Source of the DNA: a virus
Taxonomy: Duplodnaviria; Heunggongvirae; Uroviricota; Caudoviricetes
Reading direction: 5' to 3' (one strand)
IMG/VR virus record: IMGVR_UViG_2534682222_000018
Span: 1 to 18,146 of that record
Length of the DNA: 18,146 nt
Shown here: positions 1 to 7,814 of the stretch, piece after piece
How positions within the stretch are numbered: the first letter of the stretch is position 1
Layout: each line of letters starts with the position of its first letter
The notes under the pieces: generated by a model
Told to the model about the DNA's origin: nothing
The model's database searches: none
The model's input: only the letters and a program-made list of their open reading frames with translations
Position numbers and translations under genes: made by a program

Positions 1-765
1 CTATCGCGTGACTTTGTTCAACATCTGGTTTGCGTACTCTTCCTGCTTGATGCACTCACCTACCAGACTTTCGAAAAAATCCTTGTAAGACCTGCGCCAC
101 GTGGTTTCAGGTATATCCATCACCGTTACGCAGATGTATTTACGGACGCTATCAGGTAGCAATCTGGCATAACCACGCCCATTGCAGCGCGTACAGGTTT
201 TATATGCAGGAACTCCGCGCTGTAGAATAGTTTTCTCTTTGTCTAATACTGTTCCTTTGCCATTGCACTGGCATGCGTTGGTCAGAGCACCCTTCCCTTT
301 GCATTTGTGGCAAAGCACCTTAACCATCTCTCTTTTTTCGCTAAGGTGTGGCTGTCCGATATGCTTCATCGTCATTACTTCAGCTTCGACAAACTTATTT
401 CCATTGCAGCAGTCGCACGTTCTGGTACTGGCGGCGCTCCGGGAGTAATCAGCAAAGGCGAAAGTTGCGAGAACTTGCATTACCTTTGGCTTAACATCGC
501 TCTCAAGCTTGCGTAAGGCGGCAACCTTATCGCAGTGCTCAATTGCATATTTGGTCAGCAGGTCAATTGCTCGCTCGCGATCGTAATCGCTGATATCCAT
601 CTTACCGAGGAATGCACTGAACCCGAGATCAGCCCGGCTCTGTGTCATTCCGATCGCCGCCATGACATCCGTCCCGGTCAGCGAATCTGAACCAGTGGCG
701 CGTGGAGAGTCGCTAATAAGCGTCGACTTGGCGAAGTGATATTTCACGGTGTTTTCGAGGTTCAT
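1..765 (-). CDS. Q: Late-gene antiterminator Q (Cys-rich, zinc-binding lambdoid Q family)
   Basis: 254-aa ORF; stop TAG at 1-3 and ATG at 765 preceded by AGGAG. Several CxxC pairs (CDCC, CHKC, CQC, CTRC). Last gene of the nin operon, as in lambdoid phages. Confidence 0.7.
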   Translation of the reverse strand: MNLENTVKYHFAKSTLISDSPRATGSDSLTGTDVMAAIGMTQSRADLGFSAFLGKMDISDYDRERAIDLLTKYAIEHCDKVAALRKLESDVKPKVMQVLATFAFADYSRSAASTRTCDCCNGNKFVEAEVMTMKHIGQPHLSEKREMVKVLCHKCKGKGALTNACQCNGKGTVLDKEKTILQRGVPAYKTCTRCNGRGYARLLPDSVRKYICVTVMDIPETTWRRSYKDFFESLVGECIKQEEYANQMLNKVTR

Positions 766-898
766 TAGGCTGCTCCTGCTGAATGATAGATACGAACAAA
801 ATTACGAAGAATGCGATAATCCACCAGCACCGATCCCCGGTAGCGATAAATGCGAAGGCGCTGCCAGCGCGCGCGGAGTATCTCAAGCGTTTCTGGCT

Positions 899-1255
899 TC
901 ATTTGGCCTCCTCAATAATGATTTGCCCGGTTTCTCCCCAGATTTTGGTAACCCGTCCGTCCCAGACATGGCTATCCTCGTCAAACACTGCATCCAGCAA
1001 AGCTTTTTCCAGGTTGTCTTTGTCCGGCTTTTGTCGATGTGGCTTGCCGACATATTGCGCCCGCTTTGCCTTACTCCAGCTCTTTGGCATGGGGATAACG
1101 AACGTGACGTGATATCCGGACTCAGGCAGACGGATGCCGAGCAACCTGACCTGTTCTTTGTAAGCCCAGTACTCTGCCGTTGCTGGCCGTTTATGCCATC
1201 GGTCACGCTGAGTCATCCTGGGCTTGCCAATCGGCGTAATTTCGTAAATTTTCAT
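899..1255 (-). CDS. rusA: RusA-like Holliday junction resolvase
   Basis: 118-aa ORF with acidic motif PDKDNLEKALLDAVFDEDSHVWDG resembling the RusA catalytic Asp cluster. Its ATG overlaps the upstream stop (ATGA). Sits just upstream of Q, the usual rusA position. Confidence 0.5.
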   Translation of the reverse strand: MKIYEITPIGKPRMTQRDRWHKRPATAEYWAYKEQVRLLGIRLPESGYHVTFVIPMPKSWSKAKRAQYVGKPHRQKPDKDNLEKALLDAVFDEDSHVWDGRVTKIWGETGQIIIEEAK

Positions 1256-1536
1256 GCGGGCACCACCAGCCCGCGGCGGGCAACTTCAATCACTGTCAGA
1301 ACAATCGCGCGATCCATAAGCTGCCGGCGCTCTTCCCTGTTCAGCTTATTCCCGTTATCAATGCTGTCATGACAGCAAACGCAGAGCGCAGCTGTCGCAC
1401 AGTCATCAGTTTTTAATCCCATGCCTTTCCCTTCGTTCCGGTGTGCCACCTGCGTTCCCCATGCGCCACAAAGAACACAACGTTCGATCTGCCCGACTGC
1501 GGCGAGCCACTTCTTGCTGCGGTAGGTTTTACTCAT
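1252..1536 (-). CDS. DUF1364 (YbcO-like) Cys/His-rich nin-region protein
   Basis: Internal ATG at 1536 with RBS AAGGTGGTGAC, placed 5 nt after the phosphatase stop. Motifs [14 protein letters not shown] and CVCCHDSID match recalled YbcO/DUF1364. The longer track ORF (to 1614) overlaps the phosphatase gene and is rejected. Confidence 0.45.
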
Positions 1537-2197
1537 GGTCACCACCTTGCACCTGAACCAGCGTGAGGTTTCCGCAAAACACCGCTCCTGTGTCGATGTA
1601 CATCTGGTTGGCATACTTCAGGGGCTGGCGCGCTGGGGTGTGGCCGAAGATAAACAGATCAGCACCGGCTATCGTCGATACAATGCCGTCCTGTGCGTCG
1701 CTAACCCTCTCACGATTCCAGATGACCATATCTTTCGGGATGGGCTTATCGAACGCATATTCGTTATGCGGGTAGTCAGCGTGGCAGATAACGATTTTAC
1801 GCTCAGCGGTAACCAGCTCGATGACGAGTGGCAGCTCAGCTGCTTTGTGAACCAGAGCCTTAGCCAGCACTTCTTTGTCATAGTCGAGATTGAAGAACCA
1901 GCCGCCACCATTTGCCAACCAGTGATTGACGTTCCCATACTCCGATAGCCCATCAATCATCATCTGCTCATGGTTTCCTCGCACAGCCCGGAACCAAGGC
2001 ATAGTAATCAGCTCCAGGCACTCGACGTTTTCCGCGCCGCGGTCAACAAGGTCTCCAACCGAAATCAGCAAATCACACGCAGGGTCGAACGAAACTTTTC
2101 CGAGCTCATTCATCAGCAGCGTGTAGCACCCATGCAGATCGCCGACGACGAAAATATTGCGCCAGTCAGCGCCATTAATGCGTTGATACATGCTCAT
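1529..2197 (-). CDS. ninI: Ser/Thr protein phosphatase, lambda NinI (PP-lambda)-like metallophosphoesterase
   Basis: Canonical calcineurin-like motifs GDLHG, GDLVDRG and GNHE. Near-colinear with recalled lambda phosphatase ([40 protein letters not shown]). Start ATG 2197 has RBS GAGGAG and overlaps the upstream stop (ATGA). Confidence 0.9.
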
Positions 2198-2364
2198 GCA
2201 GATTTTCTCCTCGCCGCGAGACGCAGCCATTTCTGATCCACCAGGCGGGCGGTGTAGTCTTTCAGGGTCGGGATATCGGACGGCTTAACCGCGGGCTTAG
2301 GCTTGCGGCGCGCCGGAACGCGAAAGATTTCGTTTGTGATGACGCGGGAAAGTGGAGTTGACAT
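2194..2364 (-). CDS. ninE: NinE-like small basic protein
   Basis: 56-aa ORF below the track size cutoff, translated by hand: [65 protein letters not shown]. The RKPKP and W.R...RRK motifs resemble recalled lambda NinE. Coupled to both neighbours. Confidence 0.45.
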
Positions 2365-2819
2365 CAGGCCTCCTGCTTATCGCGCAGCACCTGAAATTCG
2401 CTGCTTTGAGGGATTGTGAGCACCAGGCCAAACTGAGCGCACCAGCCTTCCACCTGGCACATGAAATGGTGCATGTCGCCAGTGTCCAGATCGGACGTGT
2501 GGCGGAGTTCTAATTCAATCGTCTTAATTCCGGTGACGAAATCGGTGTACTCAACCTCTTCATAACCCAGATAAGTTTTTTTGAGGTTTCGCTTTACCCA
2601 TGCAGGCGTTGCGTCAGTGCGCCCAGACTTGATCAGGTAGTCGCTTATTTCCTTGTACCAAACGTGGCTCAGACTATTTTGTGAAAGGCTTCTCTTCTCG
2701 CGCCAGTCTTTGAGTTGGAGCCGGAAGCACTCACCGTTTTCGAGAAGTGGCTTCAGATGCTGAGTGATAGCACCAAGATTTCCACGGTGTAGCTTGATGC
2801 CGTCTTTGGGGATAATCAT
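2364..2819 (-). CDS. ninB: NinB (Orf-family recombination mediator)
   Basis: Start taken at the internal ATG 2819 with RBS AAGGAGG; the longer track ORF runs to 2867. Contains RSLSQNS, similar to the recalled lambda NinB RSLDQNR region. Stop overlaps the NinE-like start (TGATG). Confidence 0.65.
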   Translation of the reverse strand: MIIPKDGIKLHRGNLGAITQHLKPLLENGECFRLQLKDWREKRSLSQNSLSHVWYKEISDYLIKSGRTDATPAWVKRNLKKTYLGYEEVEYTDFVTGIKTIELELRHTSDLDTGDMHHFMCQVEGWCAQFGLVLTIPQSSEFQVLRDKQEA

Positions 2820-3003
2820 ACGGCCTCCTTGACGGAAACCGCAGAATGCAGAAAATCGCAGGTGCATTTCTGCATCTGTGACAAGGTGAGGAGTTCAGAT
2901 TGTTGTCGCATTTAAGTCCCCTTAAATGCGAAGAAGTCATCGAAGTTGTTCAGGCTCCGATGACATGATTATAACATCACTTTTGAAAAATGATTATCAA
3001 GAA

Positions 3004-3672
3004 TCACTCTAACTTCGGCGCTGCTTCAATCATCCTGCGATAGACATTGTAAGTTCCGAATTGTTCATCACCAGCCTCAAGCATTTCATGGGTTGGATCT
3101 TCTGGCACCATCACCCAACCATCAGGAATCACCGGAGAGTTGCCACCCTGAACAGTAGGCATATCCGGACCTTTGCGAATCGCCCTGGCAAGATCGATTG
3201 GGTCATCGTACAACCAGTCACCTGTTTGCGGATGATTGGCTTCTGCCAATTGTGCAGCCCACTCCAGGCCGTCTTTGTGTCCTTGCAGATAGTCCAGCGG
3301 TAACTCATCACTATTACTTACAGGTTCGGCCTGAAGCATGGCGGCGCGATAGGCGTTCCAGCCGACAGCTTTTCCGTGTTCAAACGCGCTGTCAAAGTCA
3401 TCATCCATTTCCATCGCAGCGGGCACAGATACCGGCGCTGGCGGGGCGGTGTAAAGCGGCGTTACTTCTCGCAGCGGGTCGGCATAAGCATTGCCACTAT
3501 CGAAGCTGACGTTGTTTTTTGCCCCGCCTCCTGACAGCAACCACGCCACCGGCTCCGCTTCGAGCGATGCCAGCGCAATCCGTGCCAGTTCCATTTGTTC
3601 ACCACGGGTAAGCCCGTTTTCAAGCGGATTTTTAATGAACAATTCAATACGTTCTTTGGTAATAGTGCTCAT
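3004..3672 (-). CDS. Hypothetical protein (accessory insert in the nin region)
   Basis: 222-aa ORF; ATG 3672 with RBS GGTGAGGA, 3 nt after the upstream stop. Pro/Ala-rich linker (TAPPAPVSVPAA) and acidic C-terminal half. No family recognised. Confidence 0.6.
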   Translation of the reverse strand: MSTITKERIELFIKNPLENGLTRGEQMELARIALASLEAEPVAWLLSGGGAKNNVSFDSGNAYADPLREVTPLYTAPPAPVSVPAAMEMDDDFDSAFEHGKAVGWNAYRAAMLQAEPVSNSDELPLDYLQGHKDGLEWAAQLAEANHPQTGDWLYDDPIDLARAIRKGPDMPTVQGGNSPVIPDGWVMVPEDPTHEMLEAGDEQFGTYNVYRRMIEAAPKLE

Positions 3673-3675
3673 GGG

Positions 3676-4107
3676 TTAGTCCTCACCTTTCTGTTGCACT
3701 ACCGGAACCGATAAATCGACGCACCAGGAGATAACGCCGAATTGATCATCGTTCTGCGCTTCACCCCAAACGTAATATTTTGATCCTGGCCGACCCATTG
3801 CCGGGTCAAATACTTCTATGCCGCGTTCTGCCGTTAACGACATCAGAATCTGATGCAGGCCGCCTTTGATGTTCAGTGACGGAACGGTCAGGAAGTAAAT
3901 AAACCCGTAAAGCAATTCGGCCTTGCGCTGGCTTCCGTAAAAATACGGGATTTTGTAATAATCCAGCGCGTCGTCGAGCCAGTCTGTTTTGTCGTGGAAT
4001 TTCTGATGCCAGCGTTCCACTACCTCATCGACAGATTGACCGGCAACCATTGCAACGCAGGTAGCCATGCAGGTGTTAAATGTTGGCTGCATTTGATGTT
4101 GAAGCAT
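3676..4107 (-). CDS. Hypothetical protein, possible C39-like papain-fold cysteine peptidase
   Basis: 143 aa from ATG 4107 (the track starts at GTG 4110). Candidate Cys-His-Asp order: QMQPTFNTCMATCVAMVAG, GGLHQILM, VFDPAMG. Start overlaps the upstream stop (TGATG). Confidence 0.4.
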   Translation of the reverse strand: MLQHQMQPTFNTCMATCVAMVAGQSVDEVVERWHQKFHDKTDWLDDALDYYKIPYFYGSQRKAELLYGFIYFLTVPSLNIKGGLHQILMSLTAERGIEVFDPAMGRPGSKYYVWGEAQNDDQFGVISWCVDLSVPVVQQKGED

Positions 4108-4655
4108 CACTCCCCCTTACCGATGCCAGCGGCGCGGTCTATGCGTTCGATTTCAGCCAGAATTAAATCCCCTGCTTTTACCAGGTTGCGACGGCGGGCA
4201 TTTGGCTTCCACCATGAAGCATCCCAAGGCCACCCCCACGGCTTGCCACCATTGCGGTTAACAGTTCCTGTTTCGTTTATGTAACAAACCGCCGCCATTG
4301 CCAGTTCCCCGTTGCAGTGTTCGTCATCATGCTCTGGCATCCACCCCTCAACCGATTGTTGCCGCTGGCGCTCTGCTATCACATCCAGAATTGCAGGATT
4401 GAATGCACGCGCTTCCAGTTCTGCAATGCGCTTCTCTGCGGCTTCCAGCGATGCCAGCAGCGCCAGCACGGTGGCGGGGTTGGCTGCGGCGATAAATGCA
4501 GCATCACGCGCTTCGTTTTCACTGAATACCATGGCTATTTGCTCATGGTTCACGCCGTCAGTGGAGTAAATCTCATCGTCGAACTCAACAGCCCACCGGC
4601 CTTTCGTCGCCTTCTCCGCCGCTTCACGCAGAGCCTGGTAATTAATCTCGCTCAC
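4107..4655 (-). CDS. Ead/Ea22-like protein with C-terminal DUF550 (dATP/dGTP pyrophosphohydrolase-like) domain
   Basis: N-terminus MSEINYQALREAAEKAT plus coiled-coil AEKRIAELEAR is the recalled Ead/Ea22 signature. C-terminus has WMPEHDDEH, WGWPWD and ILAEIERIDR. GTG start 4655 with RBS AAAGGAGG overlaps the upstream stop (GTGA). Confidence 0.55.
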   Translation of the reverse strand: MSEINYQALREAAEKATKGRWAVEFDDEIYSTDGVNHEQIAMVFSENEARDAAFIAAANPATVLALLASLEAAEKRIAELEARAFNPAILDVIAERQRQQSVEGWMPEHDDEHCNGELAMAAVCYINETGTVNRNGGKPWGWPWDASWWKPNARRRNLVKAGDLILAEIERIDRAAGIGKGE

Positions 4656-5359
4656 TGGTTGCCTCCTTTGCGAAGCTGGGCGGCGATATCTTCGAGAACG
4701 CCATCAGAGAATGAGCGGTCAAAATCGCCTTCCGGCGCATTAGCCATAAACTCAGTAGAGGTAAGAATCATCCTGGCAATATCCGCGGCGTTCTTTGCAG
4801 TATCATCAATAAAACCAGCTTCCCAGGCAGCCAGCATTCTGTTCGCCACAAAGTAAGCTCCCTCCTTGCGTGCTTCAGTCTTCACTTCAGCCAGGAAGGC
4901 GTCGGTTGCTGGGGTTTCAGGAATAGTGTCTGGAATAACTTCTGAGTAAATGCGATCCATTGCTTCGAGCCATCCATATTCACAGGCGTTATAACCGTCA
5001 GTCTGAAGACCGTTATCCTCAACACCACAGCCCATTCCGATGCTTTGATAATCAGGCTCGTTACTGCGGTCAATCACTGCTGATAGAGTGCCTTTCAGCC
5101 CCGCATTCTCCGCCGCCAGCTCCCTGCACTTGCTCTCGGCGTTAGCGAGCTGTACTGCCATGTCTGTGACTTCGGCTTCAAGTTTTTCAGCATATTCAAT
5201 CAGGAGATCGATTCTTTCCGGCGTTACGGTTTTAACGTATTTGCAAATCGATGACGCATAATTATCATCCTGGAGTGTGCCAGCCAGGCCATTACAAAAT
5301 TTGCGGTTCCCTTTTGTCGCCTTGATATCGGCGATGATTTTTTTAACATCTGGTTTCAT
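4652..5359 (-). CDS. Hypothetical coiled-coil protein (accessory)
   Basis: 235 aa from the internal ATG 5359 with RBS GGGAGGG; overlaps the ren stop (ATGA). The upstream part of the track ORF overlaps ren in another frame and is rejected. Central coiled coil (EKLEAEVTDMAVQLANAESKCRELAAENAGLK). Confidence 0.5.
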   Translation of the reverse strand: MKPDVKKIIADIKATKGNRKFCNGLAGTLQDDNYASSICKYVKTVTPERIDLLIEYAEKLEAEVTDMAVQLANAESKCRELAAENAGLKGTLSAVIDRSNEPDYQSIGMGCGVEDNGLQTDGYNACEYGWLEAMDRIYSEVIPDTIPETPATDAFLAEVKTEARKEGAYFVANRMLAAWEAGFIDDTAKNAADIARMILTSTEFMANAPEGDFDRSFSDGVLEDIAAQLRKGGNQ

Positions 5360-5655
5360 GCTGACACCCTCCCGTAAAACGCCAGTACACGCTGCATCGC
5401 CGGGCTGTTCCGGCACTCCTGAAATATTCCGTTGGTGCAGCTGCGTGCGGTACCGGCCTGCTCTTCCTGCGTGGCCAGGCGATAAGTCACCGTTCGCCAG
5501 ACCTTGCTCACCCGGACAATCTTGCGGGCCCGCTCCAGATCGATAGCGTTCTTCGTGATGCAGTTGATGGTCATGCCGCACTCTGTGGCCACATCCTTCG
5601 CGGTAAAGGTCCTGTGCGTTTCGAGATAACGCAGAATTGCCTGTTTGCCTTTCAT
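5356..5655 (-). CDS. ren: Ren-like protein
   Basis: 99 aa (MKGKQAILRYLETH...). ATG 5655 overlaps the P stop (ATGA), as ren follows P in lambda. Resembles the recalled lambda Ren pattern (VWRTV.YR.AT.EE, ECR.S.AM.RVL). Confidence 0.45.
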   Translation of the reverse strand: MKGKQAILRYLETHRTFTAKDVATECGMTINCITKNAIDLERARKIVRVSKVWRTVTYRLATQEEQAGTARSCTNGIFQECRNSPAMQRVLAFYGRVSA

Positions 5656-6431
5656 TGGATAAGCCCTCTCTCTTTCCCGCGCTGATACTCTTCCCAAAGC
5701 CATTGGGCCGGGGTTAGAGCTCCGAGAGTCGCTGCGTTTGGCATGCACCCGAAGCTTTTTCCTTCCGGGTGATAACCGGCCTGACGGCTCACGTGATTTG
5801 TCGGGATCACTTCATCAGAATTCTCGAGCGCCAGGACGGGGGATGGTATTTTTTCCCCACCAGCAACTTTCAGCGCCCATTCCTCAAGTTTTTTTGACGC
5901 GTATTTTTCAGTTTCAGCCTCGCTCAGCTGGCGCTGGTACATCGCTCTGCGCGTATCGGTCACAATCCAGTACATGACGTCATGAGACCACGGGAAAGCT
6001 TCTGCTCCGCCGGTATGCAGCCCTTTTTCGCGGCTATACCGATGGAACTCATTCATCACATCAGCCAGGCCAATGCCAAGTACCGTGCCGCTATCCTTGC
6101 ACCATTTGATGAATTGCCCCGGAGAAGGCCAGAAGGGTGATTCACTGGCGCGGGCATGCCGTACACCTGCGGAAAGTTGTTCGCGGGTGCGGATCCCATT
6201 CTCTGAAAACGCTGCGATCCACTGACGCTTTGCCGTTTTCTCGTCTGCGTCAGTTTTCAGGTTTGTCTGCGTAGACGCAGGGAAAATCTGCTTCAGCTGC
6301 CGAAATAGAGAATCAACAAGCCCCTCAGCCTCAGGGTTGATAACCTTCTGCTGGTCGGTACTTCCGTTCGCCATTCTGGAAAGTAGCGCACCATCACGGC
6401 CGTTAACGGCTTGCATAATCTGATTATTCAC
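5652..6431 (-). CDS. P: Replication protein P-like (DnaB helicase loader)
   Basis: RQWIAAFSENGIRTREQLSAGVRHARASESPFWPSPGQFIKWC matches recalled lambda P (RRQWVLAFRENGITTMEQVNAGMRVARRQNRPFLPSPGQFVAWC). Start taken at GTG 6431 (SD GGGAGGA, 6-nt spacer, GTGA overlap with the O stop). The track ATG at 6446 has no usable spacer. Confidence 0.75.
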   Translation of the reverse strand: MNNQIMQAVNGRDGALLSRMANGSTDQQKVINPEAEGLVDSLFRQLKQIFPASTQTNLKTDADEKTAKRQWIAAFSENGIRTREQLSAGVRHARASESPFWPSPGQFIKWCKDSGTVLGIGLADVMNEFHRYSREKGLHTGGAEAFPWSHDVMYWIVTDTRRAMYQRQLSEAETEKYASKKLEEWALKVAGGEKIPSPVLALENSDEVIPTNHVSRQAGYHPEGKSFGCMPNAATLGALTPAQWLWEEYQRGKERGLIQ

Positions 6432-7162
6432 AGGAAGTCCTCCCATCCCTCGCGGCTGTTCCAGTGAGGCGTTTCCTGCTCGGCACGACCACGCTTAGCC
6501 AGCGGGTTAACCCTGGCATTCCGGATCCAGACTCTGAAAGCCGAATTCCAGTCGATTAGCTGCGTGCCACGGGAAAGGTGATAGTCCCGGAAGTTCAGCA
6601 GCTCAGTTTCAATGCTCACCCCCTTCTCGGCAGCCATAGCAATGTGATCTGCCGACGGCTTAAACAGGGGCGGGAATGGAATCTCCCCGTTTGGTGAAAT
6701 CCCGATCCGCCGCTTAGCGGCTTCGCTCATAAAACCATCGCGCCCAGAGAGAGAGTTAGGTTCAGTGACTGGTTCAAAAGAGTGACTGGTTCTGGTGCCA
6801 TCTGGTGGCACAGGGGGTGTGCAATCAGATGGCATAGGGTGTGCTTCTTCGTGGCATACCCCTGTGCAATTTAATGGCATAGGGGTGGCATCTAATTTCA
6901 GGTAATACACATTTGACGTGTTACCTTTTCCGTTGTTGACGCCAACACGGTTCTCACGCCTGATAAGCCCCATTTCTTCAAGCGCATCAATATGGTTACG
7001 AACAGCCGTTCTGCTGCATTCGCATTGGTCGGCGATATGTTGATACGAAGGCCAGCATTCGCCTTTATCGTTGGCGTTATCGGCCAACTTAATCAGGACG
7101 AGCTTACGCAGTGAGTTTCCCACTTTGACCCCCATTGCTTTCGCCATAAGTGACATGCTCAC
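6428..7162 (-). CDS. O: Replication initiator, O-like (N-terminal winged-HTH, Pro-rich linker)
   Basis: 244-aa ORF directly upstream of and coupled to P. N-terminal HTH region (LKLVLIKLADNANDKGECWPSYQHIADQCECSRTAVRNHIDALEEMGLI). Iteron-like repeats lie inside the gene. Start is GTG 7162 (RBS GGAGG, 6-nt spacer) or ATG 7156. Confidence 0.6.
   Translation of the reverse strand: MSMSLMAKAMGVKVGNSLRKLVLIKLADNANDKGECWPSYQHIADQCECSRTAVRNHIDALEEMGLIRRENRVGVNNGKGNTSNVYYLKLDATPMPLNCTGVCHEEAHPMPSDCTPPVPPDGTRTSHSFEPVTEPNSLSGRDGFMSEAAKRRIGISPNGEIPFPPLFKPSADHIAMAAEKGVSIETELLNFRDYHLSRGTQLIDWNSAFRVWIRNARVNPLAKRGRAEQETPHWNSREGWEDFL
6764..6893. repeat. Iteron-like repeat cluster inside the O gene (putative ori)
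   Basis: 12-bp direct repeat AGTGACTGGTTC at 6764-6775 and 6781-6792. Four or more TGGCA(C/T)A(G/C)GGG-type units at 6807, 6831, 6853 and 6876 (period 22-24 bp), followed by an A/T-rich stretch. Confidence 0.5.
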
Positions 7163-7286
7163 GTGCTACCTCCGGTTTGTTTACTCTCTTCGATTTACCT
7201 GGCATAATTGCCTCGCAATTGACTGACGTTTATTGCACCTGAAAGCCGTTGGTGTTAGCGCACCGCGGCTTTCGCCCTTTCTGCGT

Positions 7287-7508
7287 TCATGCTTCAAAAT
7301 CTCCCTTCACTCCATCCCTGTTCGAAATCAGGATGGCCAGCAGCAGCGACATGTTCGGTACCAGGTTTTCCCGCCACCGGCTGACTGTGGATTTGTTGAT
7401 GCCAGCTACTTCGGCTATCCGGGCGGTACCCAGATCAGCGATTTGACGCTGCACCCAGCTCTCAATTCGTCGTGCCTCCGCTTTGTTGCGTGTCGTTAAG
7501 GTCTCCAT
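7287..7508 (-). CDS. cII: CII-like transcriptional activator
   Basis: 73 aa. RNKAEARRIESWVQRQIADLGTARIAEVAGINKSTVSRWRENLVPNMSLLLAILI aligns with recalled lambda CII. ATG 7508 with RBS GAGGAA. Located just downstream of cro. Confidence 0.7.
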   Translation of the reverse strand: METLTTRNKAEARRIESWVQRQIADLGTARIAEVAGINKSTVSRWRENLVPNMSLLLAILISNRDGVKGDFEA

Positions 7509-7548
7509 TTGCGATAATTCCTCTGATTTAATTGGTTATGGCCGCCGG

Positions 7549-7794
7549 TCAGGCGGCATGTGAATCTTGTTTAATTCGGTCAGGGTTAGCTGCTTGACGG
7601 AGCCATTCAGCCGTAAACTGCCCATTTGATGCGTCAGCCAAAAGCTGCGAATAGTTGGTTTTCTCTGTGTACTCAGTACGAGGCAGCGCCGCGTTCTTCA
7701 CCCACTTGTGAATAGCAACGTTCGATAGGCCACACAGGCGAGCAGCAGCGGTTTGACCGCCTACAGCTTCGATTGCAAATTGCATTGGGTTCAT
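7549..7794 (-). CDS. cro: Cro-like HTH regulator (Cro/YdaS type)
   Basis: 81 aa with HTH GQTAAARLCGLSNVAIHKW. Transcribed divergently from the cI-like gene across an operator-rich 84-bp spacer. Confidence 0.6.
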   Translation of the reverse strand: MNPMQFAIEAVGGQTAAARLCGLSNVAIHKWVKNAALPRTEYTEKTNYSQLLADASNGQFTAEWLRQAANPDRIKQDSHAA

Positions 7795-7814
7795 AGTGTT
7801 TTCCGTTAACTATA

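Follow-up and report, generated by a model that had tools for sequence, protein, structure and literature searches.

A Predicted Stand-Alone C39-Like Cysteine Peptidase in the nin Region of a Lambdoid Escherichia coli Prophage, and Its Phage-Borne Family

The Gene and Its Product

The sequence considered here, IMG/VR record IMGVR_UViG_2534682222_000018 (Caudoviricetes; positions 1 to 18,146, the whole of which is referred to below as the window), represents one arm of a Rac/lambda-like prophage of Escherichia coli, and our subject is a small gene on its minus strand (3676..4107, stop codon included), whose product of 143 amino acids (aa) we describe as a stand-alone C39-like cysteine peptidase, a member of the phage protein family PHROG 4049. 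The open reading frame (ORF) starts with an ATG at 4107-4105 and ends with a TAA at 3678-3676, and the protein reads MLQHQMQPTFNTCMATCVAMVAGQ...GGLHQILM...VFDPAMG or, as a run of motifs, MLQHQMQPTFNTCMATCVAMVAGQ...IKGGLHQILMSL...IEVFDPAMGRPG. The original prediction, made from the sequence alone, had pointed to a 143-aa ORF with three such motifs at this position, and both the ORF and the motifs are present as written, on the minus strand. The start codon is preceded, at a distance of 3 nucleotides (nt), by a strong Shine-Dalgarno-like sequence, TAAGGGGGA (4111..4119, read from the minus strand), and shares nucleotides with the stop codon (TGA) of the gene upstream, in the arrangement TGATG (4109-4105), while the stop codon is followed, after a gap of 3 nt, by the start of the downstream gene. 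The same start and the same 432-nt frame are used in the RefSeq annotation of near-identical genes, and an identical protein is found at NCBI under EIL48226.1, a “hypothetical protein” of E. coli 541-15. That the gene is real and strongly constrained by purifying selection is apparent from a comparison with nine homologues found on viral contigs (51-89% aa identity), in which synonymous sites have reached saturation (proportion of synonymous differences, pS, 0.71-0.92), while the proportion of nonsynonymous differences (pN) stays at 0.06-0.32. From a reading of the sequence, the 143-aa protein has no apparent signal peptide or transmembrane segment, and it has no extra domain.

Conservation of the Predicted Catalytic Residues

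An order of Cys, His, and Asp-Pro typical of C39 peptidases, behind an N-terminal Gln, had been noted in the original prediction, and it is borne out by four sites, all on the minus strand and all invariant. These are Gln7, the predicted oxyanion-hole residue (codon at 4087..4089), Cys13, the predicted nucleophile (4069..4071), His85, the predicted general base (3853..3855), and Asp101-Pro102 (3802..3807), of which Asp101 is the predicted third member of the triad, with Gln7 located 6 residues ahead of Cys13 and His85 located 16 residues ahead of Asp101. In an alignment of 102 diverse family members, in which mean column identity is as low as 29%, the only invariant columns are precisely Q7, C13, H85, D101, and P102, with C17, A19, M20, V75, S77, N79, and Y112 conserved at 90% or more. 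The same Q-C-H-D-P set is present in all of the 297 distinct full-coverage relatives examined, and C13, H85, and D101 are likewise invariant among the 27 close relatives from Enterobacterales prophages. The catalytic order that defines C39 peptidases is thus found across the family, and its conservation, as judged from these alignments, is far beyond chance; the conservation of Cys, His, and Asp, on which the original prediction hinged, extends to the oxyanion Gln.

Relationship to C39 Peptidases

At the sequence level, the relationship to C39 peptidases emerges from the family. When the 102 relatives were scanned singly, Pfam Peptidase_C39 was matched by 36 (E ≤ 1, best E 2.4e-6), C58 by six, C39_2 by five, and DUF3335 by two, and one relative has a precomputed match to PF03412, whose gathering score in Pfam is 22 bits. 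The alignment by hhalign of the family profile with the peptidase domain of CvaB has a probability of 91% and an E-value of 1e-6, and places Q7, C13, H85, and D101 opposite Q26, C32, H105, and D121 of CvaB (the CvaB sequence used was verified at 100% identity to annotated cvaB). In CvaB, the catalytic roles of C32 and H105 have been defined by experiment. The same register, with Cys13 opposite C27, is seen in a hidden Markov model (HMM) alignment to the structure of LahT150 (6mpz), a weak alignment used for register only. The auxiliary motifs correspond as well: C-M-A-T-C-V-A-M in the catalytic helix versus C-G-L-A-C-L-A-M in CvaB, P-S-L in the strand before the His versus P-C-I in CvaB, and, after the Asp, DPAMG versus DPARG in CvaB (HDPARG) and DPAKG in LahT150 (NDPAKG). 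A PDB sequence search with a profile of close homologues returned no matches, and a match of the query to RhaT, in Pfam and likewise in NCBIfam, was rejected as spurious. The query matches PHROG 4049 at E 2.5e-51, its residues 1-140 aligning with positions 2-144 of the 145 in the profile; this is its own family, a phage family with no functional annotation, to which we propose extending the C39 assignment. The name “Peptidase C39 domain” has already been assigned automatically to a few distant members in some database sources.

The predicted structure points in the same direction. The AlphaFold2 model built with the 102 diverse sequences has a predicted local distance difference test (pLDDT) value of 95.5 and a predicted template modeling (pTM) score of 0.89; a model from 19 close homologues (pLDDT 56.7) was discarded as poor. 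Cys13 opens a helix (13-22), His85 starts a strand (84-92), and Asp101 comes just after another strand (96-100), so that the model has the papain-like alpha+beta fold of C39 peptidases, with the predicted nucleophile at a helix N-terminus and the His and Asp at neighboring beta-strands. Its closest structural neighbors are the peptidase domain of ComA (score 9.6), PCAT1 (9.4), LahT150 (9.3), the pseudomurein isopeptidase PeiR (9.0), a C39-like peptidase of Bacillus anthracis (3erv; 8.8), and the PCAT1 peptidase domain as solved by nuclear magnetic resonance (8.7), followed by Staphopain, a CdiA-CT toxin, YopQ, a phytochelatin-synthase-like protein, Josephins, AvrPphB, and UfSP (6.5-8.1). The best PDB matches in Foldseek are likewise to PCAT1, and the best matches in a viral structure library are uncharacterized phage proteins and one Bacillus phage protein named “Peptidase C39 domain-containing.” Both lines of comparison, by sequence, of the family profile with CvaB and of about one third of the relatives with Peptidase_C39, and by structure, with a papain-like fold closest to C39 peptidase domains, thus uphold the C39-type reading first proposed.

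Operon and Prophage Setting

The peptidase gene is placed among the early genes of the prophage, between replication gene P/ren and NinB. On the minus strand, the order of the genes from the beginning of the window is the Q antiterminator (1-765), then RusA, YbcO, and a metallophosphatase, then NinB (2364-2867), the gene downstream of the peptidase (3004..3672; 222 aa, phrog_60, its counterpart annotated as a DUF551-domain protein in two related prophages, L001 and L002), the peptidase gene itself, the upstream Ead/Ea22-like gene (4107..4655; 182 aa, matching PF13935 at E 4.8e-20, in agreement with how homologous prophages are annotated in RefSeq), an uncharacterized gene, the gene for replication protein P (5652-6446), and, beyond it, genes for an O-like helix-turn-helix protein, cII, and a cro-like protein. 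The S24 repressor is encoded on the plus strand (7879-8655), as are, after it, the YafO toxin, RecE, and RecT, and the integrase is encoded on the minus strand at the far end of the window. These assignments agree with the annotation of related prophages. The peptidase gene is thus part of the variable portion of the nin region, in the pR delayed-early operon, and the original description of its setting as a phage early operon was right. A consensus scan for a promoter or terminator belonging to the gene itself, whose outcome was at chance level, revealed no promoter-like site on the minus strand between the immunity region and NinB, which, together with the overlapping stop and start codons, supports co-transcription and translational coupling.

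Some other features of the window deserve mention. A 309-aa ORF with a GTG start (4652-5581, minus strand) overlaps an ORF (5356-5748, minus strand) at the position where related prophages annotate “protein ren”; as PHROG matches to the former begin at residue 75, its true start is probably an internal Met near 5359. Just past the S24 repressor, a 194-aa ORF (8772-9356, plus strand) without a Pfam or PHROG match is overlapped by the gene for the YafO-family type II toxin (9347-9766, plus strand), and the pair is also annotated in L001 and L002; it is a toxin-antitoxin-like or moron pair of the immunity region, with an unrecognized partner. The RecE-family exonuclease (11923-15312, plus strand) is intact, with 1129 aa, an Exonuc_VIII N-terminus, and a PDDEXK-like C-terminus, and is followed by RecT (15318-16436, plus strand); in EC09, the complete genome closest to this one, the counterparts of both are pseudogenes, either split or frameshifted.

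Distribution and Mosaicism of the Family

While a word-indexed search recovered just the 27 close relatives mentioned above, an exhaustive profile search of 1.84 billion cluster representatives (clusters at 50% identity) placed at least 715 clusters in the family at E ≤ 1e-3, and 359 at E ≤ 1e-10. The best 150 representatives span 78-269 aa, nearly all of them being about 130-160 aa, and none is of transporter length. By tblastn, the family is present in 184 sequenced phage records, among them Kuttervirus (Ackermannviridae), Seuratvirus (Queuovirinae), and Vibrio phages including Enhodamvirus (VP5, H2), as well as phages of Pseudomonas, Erwinia, Pectobacterium, Klebsiella, and Aeromonas; no sequenced phage record carries a copy of more than 60% identity, even though phages such as Dewey, HK140, and HK225 have flanks in common with the window. 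In IMG/VR, a single peptide pattern identified 115 confirmed contigs. In E. coli, the gene is a rare cassette, found in only 9 of 5,426 complete genomes. The original view that a stand-alone C39-like domain is unusual in phages was therefore overstated, given this number of clusters and phage records and the members already auto-named “Peptidase C39 domain.”

Traces of recombination are apparent within the gene. Four database proteins (P0027 and P0024-P0026) are chimeras that retain no more of the peptidase than its initial 60-65 or its final 40-60 residues, fused to unrelated, Ea22-like sequence (P0025 has PF05322), and in E. coli EC2001 the copy (H28) is truncated at 89% and adjoins a PD-(D/E)XK nuclease-like gene. 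The chimeras and the truncated copy indicate recombination breakpoints inside the peptidase gene, and thus ongoing mosaic recombination in the nin region. At 90% identity, the cluster containing this very protein also includes “ead/Ea22-like family proteins” of 226-229 aa (P0254, P0257, P0259). P0254, the one compared, does not look like a peptidase fusion, having no peptidase similarity and only N-terminal similarity to the neighboring Ea22-like gene; these cluster members are probably a clustering artefact that arose through the chimeric sequences. As to the longer relatives, about 110 additional residues at the N-terminus are conserved between two of them, P0164 and P0232 (32% identity over 247 aa), P0164 having no Pfam match, and two others (P0082 and P0052) have C-terminal zinc-ribbon-like segments. 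The zinc ribbons of these two proteins are the only candidate domain fusions among the longer relatives scanned, the remainder having no Pfam match.

Genomic Neighborhoods of the Relatives

The contexts in which relatives of the gene occur are consistently early or accessory. In lambdoid prophages they lie in the nin region; in a Mu-like prophage the gene is found immediately after MuB, two genes ahead of Kil; in Kuttervirus it lies between the genes for the two topoisomerase II subunits; in Seurat it is within a long array of small genes; and in the early region of a Pseudomonas prophage it adjoins the gene for a large DNA methylase. In the Kuttervirus locus of Salmonella phage Maynard (L004, 5895-7417), genes for a C-N hydrolase superfamily protein and a macro-domain ADP-ribose-binding protein are located about 2 kb downstream, as other candidate host-interaction or counter-defense genes of the same early block.

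To survey the surroundings systematically, ORFs within 4 kb of the gene were clustered for 83 loci from 16 lineages. The clusters ranked higher consisted of very short ORFs or of shadows on the opposite strand, and those representing real genes were ordinary lambdoid modules. One side observation concerns a gene for an HslV/proteasome-beta-like peptidase, which is located downstream in 14 of the 83 loci, representing 6 of the 16 lineages, and is absent from the window. The protein has the N-terminus MTTIA.DG and matches phrog_1040 (“peptidase HslV family”) at E 5e-32. Its gene is found at 4150-4614 in L003 (Seurat), 3290-3832 in L039, 5420-5962 in L040, 2603-3145 in L041, 6094-6504 in L054, 5401-5925 in L055, and 8914-9405 in L008, and 3.5-4 kb downstream in L051, L062, L071, and L079. 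In Seurat one 61-aa gene separates it from the C39-like gene, and the two ORFs adjoin or overlap one another in L039, L040, L041, and L055. The two genes could constitute a phage “protease pair” or could reflect inherited synteny.

Comparison with Known Systems

With the C39 domains of the PCAT/AMS transporters (CvaB, ComA, PCAT1, LahT; MEROPS C39, PF03412), the phage family has in common the Gln-Cys-His-Asp set with its spacing (Q-6-C, H-16-D-P), the auxiliary motifs C-x3-C/S-L/V-A-M, P-[CS]-[IL], and DPxxG, and the size of about 140 aa. However, it is not fused to an ATP-binding cassette (ABC) transporter, the 143-aa ORF being flanked by unrelated phage genes, and, lacking a transporter, it falls outside the PCAT/AMS class. 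Neither is the locus a bacteriocin-processing locus as these are defined, as it has no gene for a Gly-Gly-leader substrate nearby. Further differences from classical C39 peptidases are that the family is phage-encoded, in early operons, that it possesses invariant or near-invariant residues of its own (VPSLN before the His, Tyr112), and that the query is below Pfam detection, with only about one third of its relatives touching PF03412. Stand-alone C39-like peptidases do exist elsewhere, as exemplified by FapD of the Pseudomonas Fap amyloid system, the B. anthracis protein 3erv, Peptidase_C39_2, and DUF3335. These proteins are, as far as is known, secreted or periplasmic and encoded in dedicated operons, in contrast to the phage family, which lacks a signal peptide and fixed partners and is phage-borne. 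As membership in the Pfam family is reached only at the profile level and not by the query itself, we treat PHROG 4049 as a clade of its own within the C39-like clan-CA peptidases, one that stands alone and is carried by phages.

Proposed Function and Its Alternatives

While the C39-like class of the enzyme is well supported, its substrate can only be inferred. The residues conserved suggest that the protein is very probably an active C39-type cysteine protease, in which Cys13, at the N-terminus of a helix, would act as the nucleophile, His85 and Asp101, on neighboring beta-strands, would complete the triad, and Gln7 would form the oxyanion hole. The gene would be transcribed with the rightward delayed-early pR (nin-region) operon and be translationally coupled to its neighbors, and the peptidase would thus be made early after induction or infection and not in the lysogen. 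A cytoplasmic location is suggested by the sequence, because the N-terminus runs directly into the catalytic helix and there is no signal peptide. In our view, it is probable that the protein is a single-domain cytoplasmic C39-like cysteine endopeptidase whose target, a protein of the host or of the phage, is cleaved in trans, in the service of host takeover or counter-defense.

Multiple observations weigh against this reading. The query alone has no C39 match in Pfam at E ≤ 10, and a broad family profile searched against PDB sequences reaches the C39 domain of 6mpz only at E 1.9, beneath two chance matches. No neighbor is conserved across the 16 lineages, and nothing real is present in more than three of them. 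A co-encoded substrate with a Gly-Gly leader, as had been suggested originally, was looked for and not found: the strict leader motif is present in no ORF of at least 20 aa in the window, and a regular-expression search of the 83 related loci produced 12 sporadic, non-recurring matches, a chance-level result, with half of the matches lying on the wrong strand. No substrate emerged from these searches. No functional or experimental study of the family was found in the full-text literature, nor was a functional study of one structural neighbor, 22oc. In addition, the papain fold with this triad also occurs in deamidases, acyltransferases, ligases, and small-molecule amidases, so that the peptidase chemistry is a prediction.

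How the probable substrate is pictured follows from the same data. With no exporter, no recurring leader ORF, and no conserved neighbor, we infer an enzyme that acts in trans, whose target would be a protein or peptide of the host or another protein of the phage. Since the C39 motifs are conserved, cleavage after a small-residue, Gly-Gly-like site would be the default expectation, by analogy with C39 enzymes. As to the role, a comparison with the defense models of PADLOC-DB v2 produced no match for the query and two marginal, unrelated matches for the 102 members. This result, along with carriage by strictly lytic phages and location in operons silent in lysogens, argues against a defense gene that protects the lysogen and favors host takeover or counter-defense, in which the peptidase may serve as an accessory factor.

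The alternatives differ mainly in what the Cys-His-Asp triad would act upon. One of them, which we consider unlikely, is a protease or isopeptidase specific for ubiquitin-like proteins (Ubl), cutting after the C-terminal Gly-Gly of conjugates made by Bil or by Cap2 of the type II cyclic-oligonucleotide-based anti-phage signaling system (CBASS), and thus disarming these defenses. Both enzyme classes read Gly-Gly, and Josephin and UfSP folds are among the structural neighbors; however, C39 domains of the bacteriocin type outscore every deubiquitinase in the structure comparison, including Josephin/UfSP-type proteases and the bacterial Josephin “clippases,” to which there is no detectable sequence relationship. 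Moreover, the phage family has no Ubl context, with no Ubl, E1, or E2 gene among conserved neighbors, and no phage enzyme of such a kind was found in the literature, making the parallel one of pure analogy. The reservation just made about the triad gives rise to another alternative, that of chemistry other than endoproteolysis, such as that of a deamidase, an acyl- or amino-acyl transferase or ligase, or a small-molecule amidase with a glutathione-type conjugate or a signaling molecule as its target. This also appears unlikely, considering that genuine C39 endopeptidases provide the closest structures and the sole significant match in sequence, and that the phage family retains their auxiliary motifs, namely the CxxxC helix, P-[SC]-[IL] ahead of the His, and DPxxG.

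Homology to CvaB, ComA, PCAT1, and LahT would fit a maturase of a Gly-Gly-leader peptide (a bacteriocin, a microcin, or a signaling peptide) encoded elsewhere and uncoupled from export, and isolated LahT150 is indeed active on leader peptides alone, as the structure of its complex (6mpz) shows. Such a role seems distinctly improbable, with no leader-type ORF in the window and none recurring near the 83 homologues, no ABC exporter nearby in the loci examined, and many of the carriers being strictly lytic, in which bacteriocin production is not expected. A cell-wall hydrolase, endolysin-like or associated with entry, as are many phage proteins of the papain fold, is very improbable, as the protein lacks a signal peptide and a cell-wall-binding domain, is encoded in early operons distant from lysis cassettes and tail genes, and is matched better by C39 domains than by any lysin. 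Finally, a pseudo-enzyme could be envisioned by comparison with the C39-like domains (CLDs) of RTX toxin exporters such as HlyB, which have lost the catalytic Cys and serve for binding. The phage family retains an invariant Cys13 and so is not a CLD, and active C39 domains match it much better than do CLDs. Invariance of the four catalytic residues in 297 sequences is not expected of a pseudo-enzyme, and thus a non-catalytic domain is essentially excluded.

A more far-reaching version of the takeover or counter-defense reading, in our opinion rather unlikely, would see in the family a new class of phage enzyme, a small, cytoplasmic, early, Gly-Gly-directed protease that strips Ubl conjugates (those of Bil or CBASS Cap2) or cleaves a specific immunity or housekeeping protein of the host, and that has spread horizontally among lambdoid, Mu-like, Ackermannviridae, Queuovirinae, Vibrio, and Pseudomonas phages.

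Significance

Nearly all that is known of C39 peptidases concerns their part as the leader-cleaving heads of bacteriocin exporters. The kind of enzyme is known already, and some family members have been auto-annotated as C39, so that the gene as such would hardly surprise those who work on proteases. The novelty lies in recognizing a large, strongly conserved, transporter-less family of C39-like proteins, catalytically intact as judged by sequence, that recurs as an early accessory gene in many unrelated phages of Gammaproteobacteria. A protease made early presents a plausible means to disable a host protein, and proteolytic host takeover and anti-defense by phages have been little explored. 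With clear catalytic residues and with tractable carriers, such as the E. coli lambdoid prophages, the Queuovirinae of the BASEL collection, and Kuttervirus, the question is directly testable. Even if the protein were to prove an ordinary accessory peptidase, PHROG 4049, and with it hundreds of “hypothetical proteins,” would still gain a functional annotation.
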